64,000 bases of DNA, taken from the NCBI GenBank assembly GCA_963845565.1, contig CAWJSJ010000001.1:320001-384000 (forward strand). Direction: 5' to 3'. The notes below the pieces were generated by a model that was given only the letters and a program-made list of their open reading frames with translations, was not told where the DNA came from and did not search any database. Position 1 is the stretch's first letter. Each line of letters begins with the position of its first letter. This stretch comes from an uncultured Methylomirabilota bacterium. Its GTDB lineage: Bacteria > Methylomirabilota > Methylomirabilia > Methylomirabilales > 2-02-FULL-66-22. Positions 47,113 through 58,967 of this stretch are shown here, one piece after another. A program made the translations under genes and the position numbers.

Positions 47113-49194
47113 TTACGCGTTTTCCGGTTTGCGCAGCCCGTACGCTTTCATCTTGTTCTGGAGGGTGGCGCGGCTAACGCCGAGGGCCTTGGCCGCATGG
47201 GTCACGTTTCCGCCTGTCTTGGCCAGGGCGTCGAGAATGGTTTGCTTCTCGACCAGTTCGGTGGAGACTCGGGCCAGCCCCCGGAGGTCCTTCGGCCTCC
47301 TGGACGGAGCGTCCGCCTCGCCGCGGAGCTCGCGAGGCACGTCGTCGAGTCCCACGATGTCGCCCTTGGCCACGACCATCGTGCGCTGGACGACGTTCTC
47401 CAGTTCCCGCACGTTGCCGGGCCATTGATGGGCGATGAGGACGGACATGGCGTCCGGACTCGCACCCCGGATGGTTCTCCGCAGCTTCGGGTTGGCGGTC
47501 TCGATGAAGTGATTCACCAGCAACGGGATATCCTCGGCCCGTTCGCGCAAGGGCGGGACGCGGATCGGAAAGACGTTCACACGATAGAACAGGTCCTGCC
47601 TGAACCGGCCGGTCTTTACCAACTCCTCCACGTTCTGGTTCGTGGCCGAGAGGATACGGACGTTGACGCGAATCGTGTCGGTGCCCCCCACCCGCTGGAA
47701 CTCCCCATCCTGGAGCACGCGCAGGAGCTTGACCTGCGTGCTCGGCGAGATCTCGCCGATTTCGTCAAGGAACAGGGTCCCTCCGTCCGCCGTCTCGAAG
47801 ATACCTTTTCGCCTGGTATCCGCGCCGGTGAAGGCCCCTTTCTCGTGTCCGAACAGCTCGCTTTGCAGCAACGTCTCGGCCAGGGCCCCGCAGTTGACCG
47901 CCAGAAAGCGGCGGGATCGGCGCGGACTATTATAGTGGATGGCCCGCGCGATCAATTCCTTCCCCGTCCCGGTCTCGCCGTGGATCAGCACCGTCACATC
48001 CGTCTCGGCCAGGGAGCGGATCAGCGCGAAGAGTTCCTGCATGGGCTTGCTTTGGCCGACGATTCCCGAGAAGCTGAACTTGCGTTCGATCTCGCGCCGC
48101 AGGTCGATATTCTCCTGGACCAGCCGGCTGCGCTCGAGGTTGAACTCCACCAAACGAGTCTGGATGCGACGCGCCTGTCTGAGATGCTCGAACAGCAGCT
48201 CCGAGAACTGCCGCCGCAACTGCTCGGTCGACAGGGCGGCCTCGGGATGCGGCGTCTCGGTCCAGACGAACCGGAAGCGGGAGTAGGAGGCATCGTAAAT
48301 CTGATTCTCCTCGAAGGCGACGCTCTGCCCGCCGCGGCCGATGGTCCCGGGTCGGACGATACGATATGCGAGGGGGGCATGGGTCCGCTCCCCGGGATCC
48401 GCCGCGTCTCGATTCGTGAGCACGCGAATGGTGCCGCTCCGCGTCGCCTTCACCACGACGTCGGGGGTGTCCATGAGAATATCAGGCGGAAGGGGCACGG
48501 TCTCGGACGCCAGCGCAACATGGCGCGCCTCGACGACTGGCTGCCCTGTGCCCGCGGGATGGATCGCCAGGTGGTCGCCGCGGACGGTCACTCGGTACTC
48601 CGGGAACTCGCGGACGATATCCTCGATGCGGAGCTGCGAGACCTCCTCGATGCAGCGCAGGTCCTCGATGAAGGAATAGAGGCGCGGGAAACCCTCCGCC
48701 AGTCCGCGCACCAGGTGGATGGATCCCACGGCGGGCCGGACGTTTCCCGTGAACTGAGCCAGCATGTGCAGCGCCGATCTGGGGGCCGGCGTCTCGAACG
48801 ACTGGAGCCGAAGGTAGTTTGTGTGCACGGTGGCCCACAGGTGGGAAAACAATACGACCGATCGGACGTCGTTCAGGACGCGAAAGATGATCTCGTAGAC
48901 CGTCAGCAGTTCGTGTCGGCCGTGTTCGAAGTAGGCGCGGGCTGCCAGGTAGGGAACATCCTTGCGCCCGGTGATGTGCTCGCATTGGACGATCAATTCG
49001 CGGAGCACGGTCAGCGGAACCCAGTTGTTGCCATACCGCAGAAAGGTCTGGGGATCGGGGGGTGCGACGAAACCGTCGGTGCTACGAAACAAGGCGGCGT
49101 AGTCGATGGCTGCCTTGGCGGGATACTGTTCCTCGAGGTAGGTGAGAAGGAGGTCCGTCAGGAAACAGGTTACCCACGGCTGAGAGGTTTCCAC
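47113..49194 (-). CDS. Sigma54-dependent enhancer-binding protein with a ~350-aa unrecognised N-terminal domain
   Basis: GETGTGKE, GAFTGA, LFLDEIGE, WPGNVREL, Fis-type HTH. Confidence 0.93.
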   Translation of the reverse strand: METSQPWVTCFLTDLLLTYLEEQYPAKAAIDYAALFRSTDGFVAPPDPQTFLRYGNNWVPLTVLRELIVQCEHITGRKDVPYLAARAYFEHGRHELLTVYEIIFRVLNDVRSVVLFSHLWATVHTNYLRLQSFETPAPRSALHMLAQFTGNVRPAVGSIHLVRGLAEGFPRLYSFIEDLRCIEEVSQLRIEDIVREFPEYRVTVRGDHLAIHPAGTGQPVVEARHVALASETVPLPPDILMDTPDVVVKATRSGTIRVLTNRDAADPGERTHAPLAYRIVRPGTIGRGGQSVAFEENQIYDASYSRFRFVWTETPHPEAALSTEQLRRQFSELLFEHLRQARRIQTRLVEFNLERSRLVQENIDLRREIERKFSFSGIVGQSKPMQELFALIRSLAETDVTVLIHGETGTGKELIARAIHYNSPRRSRRFLAVNCGALAETLLQSELFGHEKGAFTGADTRRKGIFETADGGTLFLDEIGEISPSTQVKLLRVLQDGEFQRVGGTDTIRVNVRILSATNQNVEELVKTGRFRQDLFYRVNVFPIRVPPLRERAEDIPLLVNHFIETANPKLRRTIRGASPDAMSVLIAHQWPGNVRELENVVQRTMVVAKGDIVGLDDVPRELRGEADAPSRRPKDLRGLARVSTELVEKQTILDALAKTGGNVTHAAKALGVSRATLQNKMKAYGLRKPENA

Positions 49195-49373
49195 GAGGCA
49201 GCGCTCCTTCTCTGCGAGGAGGGCCTACGGGCCGCACGCTAGCGCGGTTCATAGGCCGGTGTCAAGGCCCGAACGGGACCCTCGGTGGTGGTGCGCGATT
49301 GACCGGGAACCTTTGACCGGTTAAGGTACGTGAATCGTTCCGGGTCGTGGGATCGATGGGCGTGGAGGGAGCT

Positions 49374-49859
49374 ATGCGAAGAGGCGGGCGAGGTGTTCGA
49401 GAGGTCGATCCACGGCGGCGGCTCTGGATTCAGAGCGTCATCGGTTTGGCCCTCGTGGCCGGGGTGGCGGCCATCTGGGCGGCGGTCCCGAGGGATGGTG
49501 CGGCCGGTGAGCCGGCGACGCATCGCGGCGGGCCGCGATTGGCTATAGATCAGGAGTTGATCGACTTCGGCGCCGTGCGCTACAACCAGTTCGTCGAGGC
49601 GCGCTTCCGTTTGAAGAACGTGGGGGATCAACCGCTCCGGTTGCCCGCGTCGCCGCCCATCGAGGTCGTTGAGGGCTGTTGACCGCCCAAGTCGGTCGTC
49701 GGTTCGACGACCCTGATGCCCGGCCAGGAAACCGAACTGTCGGCTCGTTTCACCATGCCGCCTGGGATGGGCGGGCCCCATCTTTTCGTGATCCGATTGC
49801 AAACCAACGACATCGTCCAGCCGGAACGAACGCTCCGAATCCGTTCCCTGTGGCAGTAG
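49374..49859 (+). CDS. DUF1573-like Ig-fold membrane-anchored selenoprotein (Cys-Sec, U103)
   Basis: IDFG..F.LKNVG..PL..EGC-TGA(49680)-PPKSVVGSTTLMPGQET..MGGPHLF..TND..; SECIS-like hairpin follows. Confidence 0.82.
49694..49712 (+). promoter_or_regulatory. Putative bacterial SECIS hairpin
   Basis: GGTCGTCG-GTT-CGACGACC, starting 11 nt after the in-frame UGA. Confidence 0.75.
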
Positions 49860-49879
49860 GGCGCGTGCGGGGGAAGCCT

Positions 49880-50557
49880 GTGAGGTCATTTTCCTGGTGG
49901 GGTGCGGGATTGGTGACGTTCTGCGTCGGCGTGCTCGCCATTGGGGTGGCGGGCGCCTGGGCAGGGGAACGGAAGGAGGAGTGGACGCGAGACGATATTA
50001 TTGCCGCGCTCGAGCGCGGGCCCGGGCCCAGCATGGGGCCGGCGACGGCCCCGGTCGCGATGGTGTACTTCACGGATTTCCAATGCGGGTACTGCCGGAA
50101 GTTCGTGAAGGAGACGCTTCCCAAGCTCGAAGAGCAGTACATTCGGCCGGGAAAAGTCCGCCTCGCATACCGCCATCTCGCGATCCTTGGGGAGGCCTCC
50201 GTGCAAGCAGCGCGGGCCTCCTCCTGCGCGTTTGATCAGGGGAAGTTTTGGGAATACCACGATATCCTCTTTGCGAACCTGTCACCGCTTGCCTTCACCG
50301 CGGCCCGACTCAAGCGGTACGCTGCCGACCTCCGGTTGGACGAGAAGACGTTTGCTGCGTGTCTCGACAACCCGGCGTACGGCAAGCGGGTGGAAGCCGA
50401 AACGATGATCGGTCGGGCGCTAGGGGCGACGGGGACCCCGGCGTTTCTGCTCAACGGACAGCTCCTGCTCGGCGCGTATCCCTTTGAGGTCTTCCGGCAA
50501 GCCCTCGACAGCATGCTCGCCTCTCCGCCCCGCAAGACGCCCGGTCAGCCTCGCTAA
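49880..50557 (+). CDS. DsbA/thioredoxin-4 family oxidoreductase
   Basis: FTDFQCGYC, GTPAF; signal peptide. Confidence 0.9.
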   Translation: MRSFSWWGAGLVTFCVGVLAIGVAGAWAGERKEEWTRDDIIAALERGPGPSMGPATAPVAMVYFTDFQCGYCRKFVKETLPKLEEQYIRPGKVRLAYRHLAILGEASVQAARASSCAFDQGKFWEYHDILFANLSPLAFTAARLKRYAADLRLDEKTFAACLDNPAYGKRVEAETMIGRALGATGTPAFLLNGQLLLGAYPFEVFRQALDSMLASPPRKTPGQPR

Positions 50558-54029: not shown

Positions 54030-54141
54030 GTTTTCCGCCCTCCTTTCGTGCCATTCTACCTCCGGTGCACGCGATGGCAAGTCTTTCCCCGTTGTGCCGC
54101 CGCTTGCCTTTACCGGATAGCTCGGGTATTCTTTGGCGGTC

Positions 54142-55830
54142 ATGCATCCAAACGCCCGACCGACCGATCAAGCCTCTTGCGGCGTCTCCTCGACAACGAG
54201 ACGTGCCGTGCGGCGCATTCTTCTTGGCGGCCTCCTCGCCATTCTGTGGTCTGGTGTGGCTTGTGCCGGCGAGGACACGCAGCTCGAGGCGAGTATCCTC
54301 CGGGTCAAGCCGGCGGTGGTGCTGATCAGCAGCGAGGTGGGGGCCGAGGTGGCGATCAGTTGCGGGATTGGCCCCATTCACCAGGTGCGGCCCGACCCCC
54401 TCTACGAGACAGGGAGCGGCTTCATCCTGCATCCGGATGGTTTCATCGCGACCAACGGCCACGTCGTCGAGCGCTTTTATGAGATGAACGAGCAGCGACT
54501 CGCCAAGGAGTTCCTCGAAAAAGCCGCGGTGGACGCGTGCGGGCCGGCGCTGGCCATGGTGCCCGAGGGGGCGCGAAAGGAGCGGCTCCGCGCGATCGTG
54601 GACGACCCGGCGAACCGGGGCAAGGTCCGTTTGGTGAAGAAGCTCCACGTGCATCTGTCCACCGGAAAGATCTACGGCGCCGAGGTCAAGGCGTACAGTC
54701 CGGCCATCAAGCCGGAGGGGATCACGGCGGGCAAGAGCGCCTCGGAGGGCGGGAAGCCGGAGGCGGAGCGATCCGGAAAGGACATCGCCATCCTGAAGAT
54801 CGCCGAACGCGATCTGCCGACGCTGCGGCTCGCCCCGAGCAGCGGCATGCTGAAACTGGGCGAGCAGATCTTCGTGATCGGTTATCCGGGCGTGGTCTTG
54901 AATCACGATTTCCTCAGCCGGAAGTCGCAACTCGAGGCATCGGTGACGGTGGGGCGGGTGTCGGGTTTCAAGATCGACGTCAACGATCGCAAGGTGATCC
55001 AGACCGATGCCGCCATCACCTGGGGTAACAGCGGCGGGCCGGCCTTCAATTTCCAGGGGGACGTCATCGGCGTGGCCACGTTCATCTCCACCACCCTGGA
55101 GGGCGATCAGGCCGTGCAGGGGTTCAATTTCCTCGTTCCGGGGGACGCGGTGCGCGACTTCTGCGGCATGATCGGCCTGACGCCGACCTCGGATACCCGG
55201 TTTATGAAGGAATGGGAACAGGGGGTCGCCGCCTATTTCCGCGGCGAGTACCAGCGGAGCCTCGGACATCTGAATACCGCCGAGAAGATCATGCCTGGTT
55301 TTCCGGATATTCAACGGCTGCGCGCCTATGTGCAGATGCGCGTGGACAAGCGCCCCCGCTTCATGCAGCGCGGGAAGACCGTCGGCCTGGGGGTCGGCGC
55401 CGTCCTGGTGGGCGTCCTGGTGATCGTGGGCGTGCGACGATATGCCACCGCACGGGCGAACGGCGGTCCCGCGGTCGTTCAACGCATCGGCGCGGACGAG
55501 ATTCGCCGGCGTCTGGAGACGGGAACGGGCGTCGCCCTGGTGGATGCCCGGCACGGGGCGGCGTTCGACATGTCGCCGGTCCAGGCGGCAGGCGCGGTGC
55601 ACTTTGACATCGATCACCCAGACGTTGAGGCGCTCCGGGTGCACGTGAAACCCGACGGCGAGGTCGTCGCCTATTGCACCTGACCCGACGAGGCCACCAG
55701 CGCCCGTGTGGCGCTGCAGTTGATGCGGGCGGGTTTCCATCGGGTCTCGGTGGTGCGCGGTGGGCTCCCGGCGCTGATGGAAGAAGGGGTGACCGTGGCG
55801 CCAAAGGACACCCCGACGGCCGCCGTGTGA
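54142..55830 (+). CDS. Trypsin-like serine protease - TM - rhodanese selenoprotein fusion (C-T-U); start uncertain
   Basis: TNGHV, DIAIL, GNSGG triad; TM; LVDAR..VVAYCT-TGA(55681)-PDEATSARVALQLMRAGF..VVRGG, ending TGA 55830. Confidence 0.85.
55698..55716 (+). promoter_or_regulatory. Putative bacterial SECIS hairpin
   Basis: CAGCGCC-CGTGT-GGCGCTG, starting 14 nt after the in-frame UGA. Confidence 0.7.
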
Positions 55831-55861: not shown

Positions 55862-57037
55862 ATGAGCGACAACGGTACCCTCGCGCGTCGACAAGCGGGA
55901 TCTCGGGCCGGGAAGGGCCGGTGGTGCGGTTCGCCGTGGGCCCGGTGGGTGTGCGCGGCCTGGCTGGCGAGCGCCGCTGTCGGTCTCATGGCCTGGGCAG
56001 CACCCGCGGCCGAGGGGCCGGCGCGGGGTGGAAGCGGCCTCACCCAGGAGGAAGAGACGGTCATCGGGATCTACCGGGCGGCGGGGCCGGGCGTCGTCCA
56101 CATCTCCAGCACGGTGCTGAACCAGGACTTCTTCTTCCGGATCGTACCGGAGCGGGGCACCGGTTCCGGGTTTGTGGTGGATGACACGGGGCTGATCTTG
56201 ACCAATAACCACGTGGTGGAGAACGCGGAGAGTGTGGAGGTCACGTTGGCCGACAAGAGCAAGGTTCCCGCCAAGCTCGTGGGCCGCGACCCGCACAACG
56301 ACGTGGCCGTCATCCGGATCAGCGCTCCGCGGGAGAAGCTGACCCCCCTGCGGCTTGGCGACTCCACGCAATTGCTCGTCGGGCAGATGGCCGTTGCCAT
56401 CGGGAATCCGTTCGGTCTGGATCGTACCCTCACGCGGGGCGTGGTGAGCGCCGTAGGGCGCAGCCTGAAGTCGGAGACCGGCCGGCAGATCCGGAACATG
56501 ATCCAGACCGACGCCGCCATCAATCAAGGGAACTCCGGGGGTCCCCTGCTGAATTCGCGTGGCGAGGTGATCGGCATCAACACCGCCATCTTCACGCCGA
56601 GCGGCGGCTCGGTCGGGATCGGGTTTGCCGTGCCCGTCAACACGGTGAAGAAGATTCTGCCCCAGCTCATCGCCCGCGGCCGGGCGAGTCATCCGTGGCT
56701 GGGGATCAGTGGGAATGACATCACCCCGACCATGGTCAAGGCGCTCTCGCTTCCCGTCAAGGAGGGCGTGATCATCGGCCAGGTCGCGCCCAACGGGCCG
56801 GCGGCGCGTGCGGGCTTGCGGGGATCGCAGCGGCGGGTCCGCGTGGGCAATTACATGGTCAACGTCGGGGGCGACATCATCCAGGCGTTGGACGGTGAGA
56901 AGATCACCACGATGGACGATGCCACCGCGTTTCTCGACGACCGGAAGCGGGTGGGGGATGACGTGACGGTCGAGGGGCTTCGCGACGGGAAGCCGTTTGC
57001 GGTCACCGTGCGACTGGGCGAACTGCCGGAGAACTGA
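55862..57037 (+). CDS. HtrA/DegP-family protease with one PDZ domain
   Basis: GSGF, TNNHV, GNPFG, QTDAAINQGNSGG, WLGI. Confidence 0.93.
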   Translation: MSDNGTLARRQAGSRAGKGRWCGSPWARWVCAAWLASAAVGLMAWAAPAAEGPARGGSGLTQEEETVIGIYRAAGPGVVHISSTVLNQDFFFRIVPERGTGSGFVVDDTGLILTNNHVVENAESVEVTLADKSKVPAKLVGRDPHNDVAVIRISAPREKLTPLRLGDSTQLLVGQMAVAIGNPFGLDRTLTRGVVSAVGRSLKSETGRQIRNMIQTDAAINQGNSGGPLLNSRGEVIGINTAIFTPSGGSVGIGFAVPVNTVKKILPQLIARGRASHPWLGISGNDITPTMVKALSLPVKEGVIIGQVAPNGPAARAGLRGSQRRVRVGNYMVNVGGDIIQALDGEKITTMDDATAFLDDRKRVGDDVTVEGLRDGKPFAVTVRLGELPEN

Positions 57038-57507
57038 TGGCGACGCTGCGGCGGACACGCATGGTATTCGTCTGGACGGTGGCGCTCTGGTGCTTCCTGC
57101 TCGCGCCGGCCGTCGCGGTGGACGTGAATCCGCCGCTTCCCACCGGAACGATCGTGATCGGCGACCGCGTGACGGTGACCGTGGAGCTGGCTCGATCCGG
57201 CGACGAGAAGGTCCGGGGGTTGAGCGGACGGCCTGGCCTCAAACGCGGCACCGGGATGCTCTTCGTGTACGACCGGCCGCAGCCCATCGGCATCTGGATG
57301 AAGGACATGCGCTTCTCGCTGGACATCCTCTGGATCCGCGAGGGGTCGGTCGTTCACATCGAGCGGAACGCGCCGCCCCTGACCGCGGTCGGGCCGGAGC
57401 GTGTCTACACGGCGACGGGAGACATGGTGCTGGAGGTGCCCGCCGGTTTCACCGCAGACCGGAAGATCAAGGTAGGGGATTCCGTGAAGGCGGACATCCC
57501 GAAATGA
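57037..57507 (+). CDS. DUF192 family protein
   Basis: VELA..RGLSGR..GMLFVY..WMKDMRFSLDI..VLEVPAG. Confidence 0.9.
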   Translation: MATLRRTRMVFVWTVALWCFLLAPAVAVDVNPPLPTGTIVIGDRVTVTVELARSGDEKVRGLSGRPGLKRGTGMLFVYDRPQPIGIWMKDMRFSLDILWIREGSVVHIERNAPPLTAVGPERVYTATGDMVLEVPAGFTADRKIKVGDSVKADIPK

Positions 57508-58151
57508 GAGCCGAGAGCCGAGAGCCGAGAGCCGAGAGCGGAGCGGGAACGGCCGCGAGCCGCGAGCCGCGAGCCGCGAGGGTGGGGACCGCGCGGGATC
57601 GGAATGGCCTGGCGGCGGGCGCTGTACTCGTGTTCCTATCGCTTGTCCTCTCCTGCCTTCCGGCCGCCGCTGCCAAGGCCGGCAGCGATCCGCTGCAGGC
57701 GCTTGGTCTTCAAGCGCCCAAGGAGGCGGTGGACGCGCCCGATTTTTCGCTGCCCGATCTATCCGGGAAGCAGATCCCACTGAAGCAGCTCAGGGGAAAG
57801 TTGGTGTTCCTGAATTTCTTCGCGACCTGGTGCGGGCCCTGCCGTGAAGAGATGCCCGGCATGGAGCGGCTTCACCGGGCTCACCAGGGCAACGGCCTGG
57901 TGGTGCTGTCCGTGAACGTCCAGGAAAGCGCAAAAACGATTCGTCCGTTCTTGCAGGCCCTCAAGCTGTCGTTCCCGACGGTCATGGATGCCGAGGGGGC
58001 GGTCAGCCGGGAGTATGGTGTCCGGGCGCTTCCGGTGAGTTTTCTCATCGGGCGCGACGGCAAGATCGTCTGGCGCGCGATCGGGGGGCGGGACTGGGAG
58101 AGCCCTCAGGCGCGACAATACTTCACGCAACTGGTGGCGGAGAAGCGATGA
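57504..58151 (+). CDS. TlpA/ResA family thiol-disulfide reductase
   Basis: APDFSL..LNFFATWCGPC..EMP; N-terminus encoded by heptamer repeats. Confidence 0.9.
   Translation: MRAESREPRAESGAGTAASREPRAARVGTARDRNGLAAGAVLVFLSLVLSCLPAAAAKAGSDPLQALGLQAPKEAVDAPDFSLPDLSGKQIPLKQLRGKLVFLNFFATWCGPCREEMPGMERLHRAHQGNGLVVLSVNVQESAKTIRPFLQALKLSFPTVMDAEGAVSREYGVRALPVSFLIGRDGKIVWRAIGGRDWESPQARQYFTQLVAEKR
57506..57580 (+). repeat. (GAGAGCC)n and (GCGAGCC)n heptamers in the TlpA 5' coding region
   Basis: Encodes [11 protein letters not shown]...SREPRA. Confidence 0.85.
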
Positions 58152-58208
58152 TCCCCCCTCCGCCGGGTCGGAATTCCGCCTGCCCGGTTCGGCAACGAAA
58201 GGACAGGG

Positions 58209-58967
58209 ATGCCTGGCGCTGAACTCAACGTCCTGCTGGCGATGGCGGCCGGACTGCTCTCCTTTCTCTCGCCCTGCGTGCTGCCGCTCTTGCCGTCATA
58301 CCTCTCCTTCATCGCGGGGCTCTCTTTCGAGGAGCTCCAGGGAACGGTGGCCAATCCGCGGACGCGCCGGGCGATTCTGGTCAACTCGCTCCTCTTCGTC
58401 CTGGGGTTCTCGATCGTCTTCATCGCCCTGGGTGCGGGCGCGACGCTGGTGGGGCAGGCCCTGTTCCAGTATCAAGTCCTGATCCGGCGGATCGGCGGCG
58501 GCTTCGTGGTCCTCATGGGGCTGTACGTGGCCGGGTGGCTTCGCATTCCATTCCTGATGCGGGAGTGGCGGGCGGAGCTGTCCAGTCGGCCGGCGGGTCG
58601 CCTCGGCGCGGTCGTGACCGGCATCACCTTCGCGGCCGGCTGGACCCCCTGCATCGGGCCGATCTTGGGATCGATTCTGACGCTGGCATCGGTGACCCAG
58701 ACCGCCTGGACGGGGATTCTGATGCTGGCGGCGTATTCGCTTGGGCTGGCGATCCCCTTCCTGCTCAGCTCGCTCATGATCGACCGCTTCCTGGTGTTCT
58801 TCGATCGCTTCAAGCGGTTCTTTCCGGTGGTGACCCGGGTGAGCGGAATCATCCTGATTGCGGTGGGGCTGCTCCTGCTGACGGACTACTTTGCGGTGTT
58901 GAGCCGGCTGGCGTTCTCCCTCACGCCAGACTGGCTGTTTGCCATCGAGCGGAGTCTGCTGCGGTAA
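58209..58967 (+). CDS. ccdA: Cytochrome c biogenesis protein CcdA
   Basis: LSFLSPCVLP, WTPCIGP. Confidence 0.92.
   Translation: MPGAELNVLLAMAAGLLSFLSPCVLPLLPSYLSFIAGLSFEELQGTVANPRTRRAILVNSLLFVLGFSIVFIALGAGATLVGQALFQYQVLIRRIGGGFVVLMGLYVAGWLRIPFLMREWRAELSSRPAGRLGAVVTGITFAAGWTPCIGPILGSILTLASVTQTAWTGILMLAAYSLGLAIPFLLSSLMIDRFLVFFDRFKRFFPVVTRVSGIILIAVGLLLLTDYFAVLSRLAFSLTPDWLFAIERSLLR

Follow-up and report, generated by a model that had tools for sequence, protein, structure and literature searches.

A predicted selenoprotein of Methylomirabilota that joins an HtrA-fold protease to a rhodanese domain with an in-frame UGA

The DNA analysed here, referred to below as the window, is a stretch of 64,000 nucleotides from an uncultured Methylomirabilota bacterium (GenBank assembly GCA_963845565.1, contig CAWJSJ010000001.1, positions 320,001 to 384,000 of the forward strand). 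It contains an open reading frame for an exported trypsin-like protease that, by the ordinary code, stops at a TGA codon in the middle of a C-terminal rhodanese domain. We are confident that positions 54142–55830 form one gene for a 562-residue bitopic inner-membrane selenoprotein, in which this codon is read as selenocysteine (Sec, U); a regulatory role of the rhodanese domain is graded separately below. The gene has the following features, given in window coordinates.

54142..55830, + strand: complete gene of the predicted selenoprotein, 562 codons, with an in-frame UGA as Sec514; orthologues align over residues 8–561
54142..54270, + strand: N-terminal signal sequence, residues 1–43 (Arg-rich n-region, hydrophobic core 25–43, A-C-A before GEDT)
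54277..55176, + strand: periplasmic HtrA-fold serine protease domain, approximately residues 46–345 (Pfam Trypsin_2, Foldseek, conserved columns)
55198..55350, + strand: three-helix linker, residues 353–403 (AlphaFold model; predicted local distance difference test, pLDDT, about 90)
55378..55434, + strand: transmembrane helix, residues 413–431, TVGLGVGAVLVGVLVIVGV (Kyte-Doolittle peak 2.56; model helix 406–439)
55480..55803, + strand: rhodanese domain, predicted to be cytoplasmic, residues 447–554 (Pfam, NF041203, profile alignment; Cys512 codon at 55675–55677)
55681..55683, + strand: UGA predicted to be read as Sec514 (basis: TGA column in relatives; Cys in 11 full-length database proteins)
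55698..55716, + strand: probable selenocysteine insertion sequence (SECIS) hairpin, with a 7-bp stem, a 5-bp core GCGCC/GGCGC and a 5-nucleotide (nt) loop CGUGU that has G at loop position 2

The gene starts with ATG at 54142, and an alternative TTG start is found at 54133. By the ordinary code the open reading frame ends in ...DGEVVAYCT, followed by TGA at 55681–55683. An earlier reading of this DNA, made from its letters alone and called here the sequence-only reading, had placed the stop directly after VVAYCT in mid-rhodanese; this is exact to the base, and the Pfam rhodanese match crosses the TGA. Past this codon the frame remains open for 48 more codons, reading PDEATSARVALQLMRAGFHRVSVVRGGLPALMEEGVTVAPKDTPTAAV, up to a terminal stop TGA at 55828–55830, and the ATG of the next gene follows at 55862, 31 nt beyond. 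Both the continuation in the same frame and its end 31 nt short of the next gene had been described correctly. The sole in-frame TGA of the gene falls in the rhodanese domain, where it produces the motif Y-C-T-U-P-D-E with the Sec two residues past Cys512. A strict scan of the genome for the motif CxUPxE returned one gene, the protease-rhodanese gene itself; other fusions of such Cys-x-Sec (CxU) modules are in relatives. Judged by comparison with these relatives, the UGA is very probably a selenocysteine codon, and incorporation of selenium is predicted.

The nearest relatives of the genome carry the labels Candidatus Methylomirabilota, Methylomirabilis or Methylomirabilales, and farther ones Rokubacteria or Rokuibacteriota. 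One tally counts 160 of 251 genomes matching at E 1e-60 or better, and another counts 41 genomes. The main set of loci consists of the best 80 of 348 relatives in species-representative genomes, and the column of the UGA is present in 71 of them. Forty-nine have TGA at this column; the other 22 encode Ser (13), Cys (5), Thr (2), Glu (1) or Ala (1). The preceding Cys, equivalent to Cys512, is retained in 69 of the 71 loci. A second set of 50 loci, partly overlapping the first, contains 30 with TGA and 20 without. Genomes flagged as unpublished enter the two tallies (G028 that of 41 genomes; G075, G216 and G217 that of 160), but the examined loci include none from them. A hand count of 150 listed rows, 113 of which span both domains, gave about 78 with at least one TGA, 33 with none and 2 with TAG only, but this count is inferior to the script-based count of 71 loci, which is preferred. 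At the DNA level, TGA is found in 14 same-genus orthologues and in G022; the same-genus orthologues L027 and L045 have TGT and TGC.

Among the 120 best database proteins, 86 terminate exactly at YC[D/T/H], that is, the gene call halts at the UGA. Eleven are full-length and run from YCDCPDE[AS]TS through a complete rhodanese domain, and 23 are fragments or paralogues that lack it. Both TGA and Cys therefore occur at the column, as the sequence-only reading had envisaged, and the downstream sequence is conserved. Its statement that the UGA occupies the second Cys of a Cys-type motif fits the 11 full-length YCDCPDE homologues but not the farther non-Sec homologues, which mostly have Ser. A tree of 43 full-length rows implies at least seven changes of Sec state, five of them forced by well-supported branches, so that Sec and non-Sec forms have repeatedly replaced each other. 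At the Rokubacteria-type locus L070 (G171:C84) the codon is GAA (Glu) and the hairpin is fully intact; its nearest relative on the tree, L060 (G174:C172), has TGA. A two-base change to Glu would be unusual, and the codon may instead be a sequence artefact.

If the UGA were a true stop, the gene would yield a roughly 513-residue protease ending in a truncated rhodanese stub without function, and the 147 nt that follow would be an untranslated spacer. Gene callers do end the protein there, as in the 86 of 120 best database proteins that end in YC[D/T/H], and the folding energy of the region is unremarkable. The codon positions argue otherwise. In the 14 same-genus TGA orthologues, the 42 codons past the TGA show 432, 429 and 1588 pairwise differences at codon positions 1, 2 and 3, compared with 921, 1045 and 1872 for the 42 codons ahead of it. 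As measured by these counts, purifying selection on the protein is at least equally strong past the TGA as ahead of it, and it is strong at the first two codon positions. Both rhodanese models, that of Pfam and NF041203, align across the TGA, and the segment past it completes the rhodanese fold in the AlphaFold model (pLDDT 80–89) and is collinear with the full-length Cys forms. Across the phylum, moreover, 49 of 71 loci retain a TGA at this single column. We give next to no weight to a true stop.

The hairpin downstream of the UGA consists of CAGCGCC (55698–55704), the loop CGTGT and GGCGCTG (55710–55716), and it folds at -11.8 kcal/mol alone. It begins 14 nt past the UGA, as the sequence-only reading had pointed out, with the 5-bp core at 16 nt and the loop at 21 nt. 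The program bSECISearch judges candidates by the spacing from the UGA and by a G in the apical loop. The core GCGCC-N5-GGCGC is perfect in 48 of the 49 TGA loci versus 3 of the 22 non-TGA loci, which makes the hairpin a SECIS-like element that is conserved together with the TGA. In the second set the corresponding counts are 29 of 30 and 3 of 20. One paralogue has the core variant GUGCC/GGCAC. The loop reads CGGGU, CGUGU, AGUGU, AGGAU or CGUGC, and its position 2 is G in all 49 TGA loci. When 20 TGA sequences are compared, including paralogous fusions whose rhodanese domains share 33–41% protein identity, 94.3% of the cells pair, with compensatory changes at two stem pairs (CG/GC and CG/UA). 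[quoted passage not shown]

The genome contains all four of selA, selB, selC and selD, on which the sequence-only reading had made its case depend. The tRNA-Sec scores 76.2 bits and has the anticodon TCA, and selB adjoins it. The selA gene scores 578 bits and selD 343 bits; selD has an in-frame TGA of its own, in AACAG-U-ASKLGP (G000:C2:254745), and also encodes a selenoprotein. Its UGA is followed 12 nt downstream by a short GC hairpin of similar kind, GGUCC-GGC-GGACC (5 bp).

The UGA might also be read through without Sec, for example by a near-cognate Cys- or Trp-tRNA or by other suppression, to give a CxC- or CxW-type protein. Some homologues do have Cys at this column, and the identity of the inserted residue is deduced from sequence. 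The genome nevertheless has a complete Sec toolkit, and the hairpin, which tracks the TGA, has the spacing and the loop G of a bacterial SECIS. In addition, TGA 55828–55830 serves as the true stop of the same gene, and TGA is therefore not a general sense codon of the organism. Read-through of this kind is exceedingly improbable.

The protease half begins with a signal sequence that has an RR..RR n-region, a hydrophobic core at residues 25–43 in a hydropathy scan and a model helix at residues 18–36; cleavage would be expected after A-C-A. Pfam Trypsin_2 matches residues 91–311 (E 1e-24). The motifs TNGHV, DIAILK and GNSGGP are present, and the catalytic triad is encoded at 54460–54462 (His107), 54781–54783 (Asp214) and 55030–55032 (Ser297). 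In an alignment of 54 sequences Asp214, Ser297 and Cys133 are invariant, and His107 and Cys74 are nearly so; Cys74 and Cys133 would fit a periplasmic disulfide. There is an insertion of about 80–100 residues between His107 and Asp214, and Pfam gives no match to a PDZ domain in the protease. The best Foldseek matches are HtrA1, DegP, DegQ and MucD, with E values down to 4.7e-16, the value for HtrA1, at 22–24% identity. The AlphaFold model has an overall mean pLDDT of 76.7 and a predicted template modelling score (pTM) of 0.60, and the protease domain is confident. With a signal sequence and a single membrane helix, the rhodanese domain ends up in the cytoplasm, and the predicted topology is thus a protease that is exported, a lone membrane helix and a rhodanese domain on the cytoplasmic side. 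Rokubacteria-type homologues obey the positive-inside rule, with RRWWRNRYR past the helix. An extracytoplasmic protease with an intact triad, a helical linker and a cytoplasmic CxU domain had been proposed from the letters alone, and Pfam, hydropathy and the model agree with that proposal.

The rhodanese domain is recognized by Pfam (PF00581) over residues 451–545, with E 5e-7 and 30.5 bits against a gathering cut-off of 22.2. A single-sequence search of the Protein Data Bank with the domain gave weak matches only (Alr3790, E 0.045), and a profile was needed. With a profile of 31 related rhodanese domains the first match is 1yt8 at E 1e-24, followed by 6mxv, YnjE, GlpE, PspE and YgaP. In the alignment Cys512 falls on the catalytic Cys of 1yt8, 6mxv and YnjE, whose loops show a 2-residue gap. 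The standard rhodanese loop comprises six residues, which are basic or small, of the CRxGx[R/T] type. The loop found here, C-T-U-P-D-E-A-T-S, departs from this type, as it is acidic and two residues longer than in the solved rhodaneses. Because Cys512 coincides with the catalytic Cys and the loop is lengthened, Sec514 is an additional loop residue and not the classical rhodanese nucleophile. Selenenyl-sulfide formation between Cys512 and Sec514, or Sec-assisted persulfide chemistry, would be the natural inference from this arrangement.

Several observations weigh against the reading of the gene as a working selenoprotein gene. The 86-nt stretch 55675–55760 folds at z = -1.09, with an equally good fold in 28 of 200 shuffles. 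In GC-rich DNA the folding energy is thus unremarkable, and the case for recoding and the significance of the hairpin rest on conservation in relatives. An Rfam scan of the whole window returned no family at gathering score. The hairpin palindrome is partly dictated by the residues S-A-R-V-A-L, and the two most recent non-Sec forms (L027 with Cys, L070 with Glu) keep the hairpin. After correction for relatedness, the association of hairpin and TGA comes down to five independent Sec/non-Sec contrasts, of which about three are concordant and about two show no difference (sign test p 0.25). Ser is the commonest residue of the non-Sec forms (13 of 22), so the second residue of the motif is dispensable to the domain. 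With respect to topology, the flank ahead of the membrane helix has a charge of +5 versus +3 past the helix, which is ambiguous. Selenium incorporation is a prediction from sequence. Six RNA runs contain a small share (0.10–0.17) of the gene's words, which is no basis for a claim of expression.

The last of these observations concerns selB, which in the assembly (G000:C4:5502-7391; L013 1063–2952) is split over three frames by three +1 frameshifts in the G domain. If selB were really broken, no UGA would be decoded as Sec in this strain and the gene would be a relic. However, every break consists of one surplus base at a G/C run, after which homology resumes in the next frame. Contigs from four DNA runs, which derive from the same organism or from near-identical strains (about 98–99% alike), omit one base at each of the breaks (L013 1195, 1276–1283 and 1493–1497). 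In same-genus genomes selB is intact and above the family cut-off in five of five. Judged from the contigs of near-identical strains, the breaks most likely arose as insertions in the assembly. The TGA is a substitution-type feature common to dozens of species, unlike indel errors. Since selD keeps its own TGA and the protease-rhodanese gene is otherwise intact, we regard a relic as very improbable. Insertion errors are probably present in the assembly and could break other genes as well.

Comparison with known systems suggests that the fusion is the new element. The best-scoring rhodanese model is NF041203 (rhodanese_LYCAU), in which the Sec is likewise two residues past the catalytic Cys. 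The protein scores 61.0 bits (E 8.4e-17) against it, with residues 444–544 on profile positions 18–115 of 126, and the related CxU modules, for all of which it is likewise the best rhodanese model, score 73–87 bits; none of these scores reaches the equivalog cut-off of 115. The protein described by NF041203 stands alone, with about 126 residues and LYCAU, whereas the present domain forms the cytoplasmic tail of a membrane protease of 562 residues with YC[TDS]UPDE. By its sequence, the protein is a relative of NF041203 and not a member.

The protease shares its fold, triad and export with HtrA, DegP, DegQ, DegS and MucD (S1C), with a template modelling score (TM-score) of about 0.76–0.80 on the target. 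It differs from them in having no PDZ domain, an insertion between His and Asp, and a C-terminal linker, membrane helix and cytoplasmic domain; the HtrA family model TIGR02037 gives 84.8 bits against a cut-off of 416.2. Escherichia coli YgaP (2moi, 5hbl; profile E 0.0015–0.0026) also has a single catalytic-type rhodanese domain tethered at the cytoplasmic face of the inner membrane, where the domain is N-terminal to the membrane helices. YgaP differs from the present protein in that it lacks both a protease and Sec and that its loop is of the standard type.

Predicted bacterial selenoproteins with a trypsin-type protease have been described from Global Ocean Sampling (GOS) data under the name "trypsin-like serine protease" (COG5640) (PMC2398784). 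In these, the Sec replaces a Cys inside the trypsin domain (COG5640) or is part of a CxxU motif in a thioredoxin-like/PDZ "MucD" protein (PMC2398784). Compared with these descriptions, the protease studied here is free of Sec, and the Sec is in the fused rhodanese domain. TsoB (NF045694, "form 5", UxxxxU; PMC13188914) resembles it as a Sec rhodanese fused to an envelope-redox membrane protein, but by its description as rhodanese/DsbD fusion-like, both the Sec motif and the partner differ.

The existence of rhodanese-like selenoproteins, which the sequence-only reading had taken as known, is well documented: they have been predicted since 2005 (PMC1088965), and the CxU type appears as "COG0607 form 2" in a 2022 review (PMC9312934) and as "form 3", NF041203, in a 2026 review (PMC13188914). 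The 2026 review (PMC13188914) contains none of the words protease, peptidase and trypsin, and the BSepDB paper (PMC13326102) contains neither rhodanese nor protease. The 2026 review also cites a groundwater-genome survey (Deng et al., ref. 66) with a Methylomirabilota genome of 63 selenoproteins (PMC13188914). A protease-rhodanese fusion was not found in the searchable literature, a scope outside which this survey falls, and the survey may list the family. The architecture, unfamiliar in the sequence-only reading, is accordingly new as a protease fusion within that literature, but its CxU rhodanese type was already catalogued. What is new about this conserved selenoprotein gene, which public annotation cuts short, is its domain architecture; the kind of Sec site is known. 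With 86 of the 120 closest records cut at the Sec codon, most entries for the protein, which is widespread in Methylomirabilota and Rokubacteria, do not show the rhodanese domain. The Sec stands beside the rhodanese catalytic Cys and does not replace it, and naturally occurring forms with Cys, Ser, Thr or Glu can serve for comparison.

The following mechanism is proposed. The UGA at 55681–55683 would most likely be decoded by SelB and tRNA-Sec under the direction of the hairpin at 55698–55716. The product would have a signal sequence, a periplasmic PDZ-less HtrA-fold protease, the three-helix linker, one transmembrane helix and a single cytoplasmic rhodanese domain. In this domain Cys512 and Sec514 would form a redox or sulfane-sulfur-reactive pair, as a persulfide or a selenenyl-sulfide, and this pair could serve as an input module on the cytoplasmic side, controlling the state of the periplasmic protease by way of the membrane helix.

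Related genes bear on this last step. In relatives, the CxU rhodanese module, together with the same hairpin, is found at the C terminus of VTT/DedA membrane proteins (CTUPNE or CTUPSE) and, with CSUPGE, N-terminal to a nucleotide-cyclase domain (Guanylate_cyc, 23.8 bits against a cut-off of 21.9). The loci of these fusions are L037:2238-3278, L039:1009-1980, L040:760-1947 and L042:850-1962. At L037 the DedA-rhodanese gene is directly downstream of the protease-rhodanese gene. A paralogue in the genome (G000:C2:139534-141639; L084:135-2237) consists of a periplasmic Trypsin_2 protease, a membrane helix, a rhodanese domain with CGSPGE, that is, with Ser at the Sec column, and a PilZ domain (34.3 bits against a cut-off of 22.5). 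Two more paralogues have no rhodanese domain: one ends in an Arg/Pro-rich tail (C2:814545-815984), and the other stops soon past the helical linker (C5:699005-700438).

Because the same scaffold bears different cytoplasmic modules, and because the CxU module joins other membrane or signalling partners, we tentatively favour, at somewhat less than even weight, a rhodanese domain that serves as a redox or sulfane-sulfur input module regulating the protease and not as a free-standing metabolic sulfurtransferase. These relatives suggest that periplasmic HtrA-type proteases are possibly wired to cytoplasmic input domains such as rhodanese and PilZ. Such a regulatory role is argued by analogy alone, which counts against it, and the coupling of proteolysis to redox or selenium status is put forward as a hypothesis.

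A different view of the same selenoprotein is that its rhodanese domain is a working membrane enzyme, either a sulfur- or selenium-transferase or a reductase of chalcogens, metalloids or soft metals, that is independent of the protease and uses the fusion as an anchor only. The canonical catalytic Cys is present in 69 of 71 loci, the profile matches best to solved catalytic rhodaneses, and there are weaker NCBIfam matches to the ChrE, MoeB and MoeZ rhodaneses. Membrane-anchored rhodaneses also exist, E. coli YgaP (E 0.0015) being an example, and thiol-redox genes are nearby (TlpA-like, CcdA, DsbA-like). The loop, however, is acidic (D/E) and has none of the basic residues with which thiosulfate-type anions are bound, and both the PilZ domain on the same protease scaffold and the cyclase fused to the same module point to signalling. 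By analogy, the input role is favoured over a free-standing enzyme, which we consider somewhat less probable.

In a more specific form of the input role, the protein would be a transmembrane "inside-out" switch. The CxU rhodanese domain would sense sulfane sulfur, oxidants or the supply of selenium and set the activity of the protease, and PilZ, which binds cyclic di-GMP (c-di-GMP), or other tails would do likewise in sister proteins. Since only decoding of the UGA completes the rhodanese domain, selenium status would be reflected in how much full-length protein there is relative to truncated protein. This extended version is speculative and, in our estimate, improbable.

The genes around the protease-rhodanese gene include the following.

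47113–49194, - strand: sigma-54 activator
49679–50557: DsbA-like thioredoxin, upstream of the protease-rhodanese gene
55862..57037, + strand: neighbouring HtrA-type protease gene with a PDZ domain (Pfam)
57037–57507: DUF192
56997–58151, C-terminal part: TlpA/AhpC-like WCGPC protein
58209–58967: CcdA/DsbD_TM

A second trypsin-like gene is found at the same downstream place in nine same-genus relatives. In the Rokubacteria-type genomes, an HtrA homologue is on the contig of the gene in none of five, a further point against the regulatory role. An obligate pairing with the neighbouring HtrA gene was rejected, as the linkage ends at the genus boundary. The neighbourhood at 47113–50557 and 55862–58967 is rich in genes for envelope protein folding and redox reactions.

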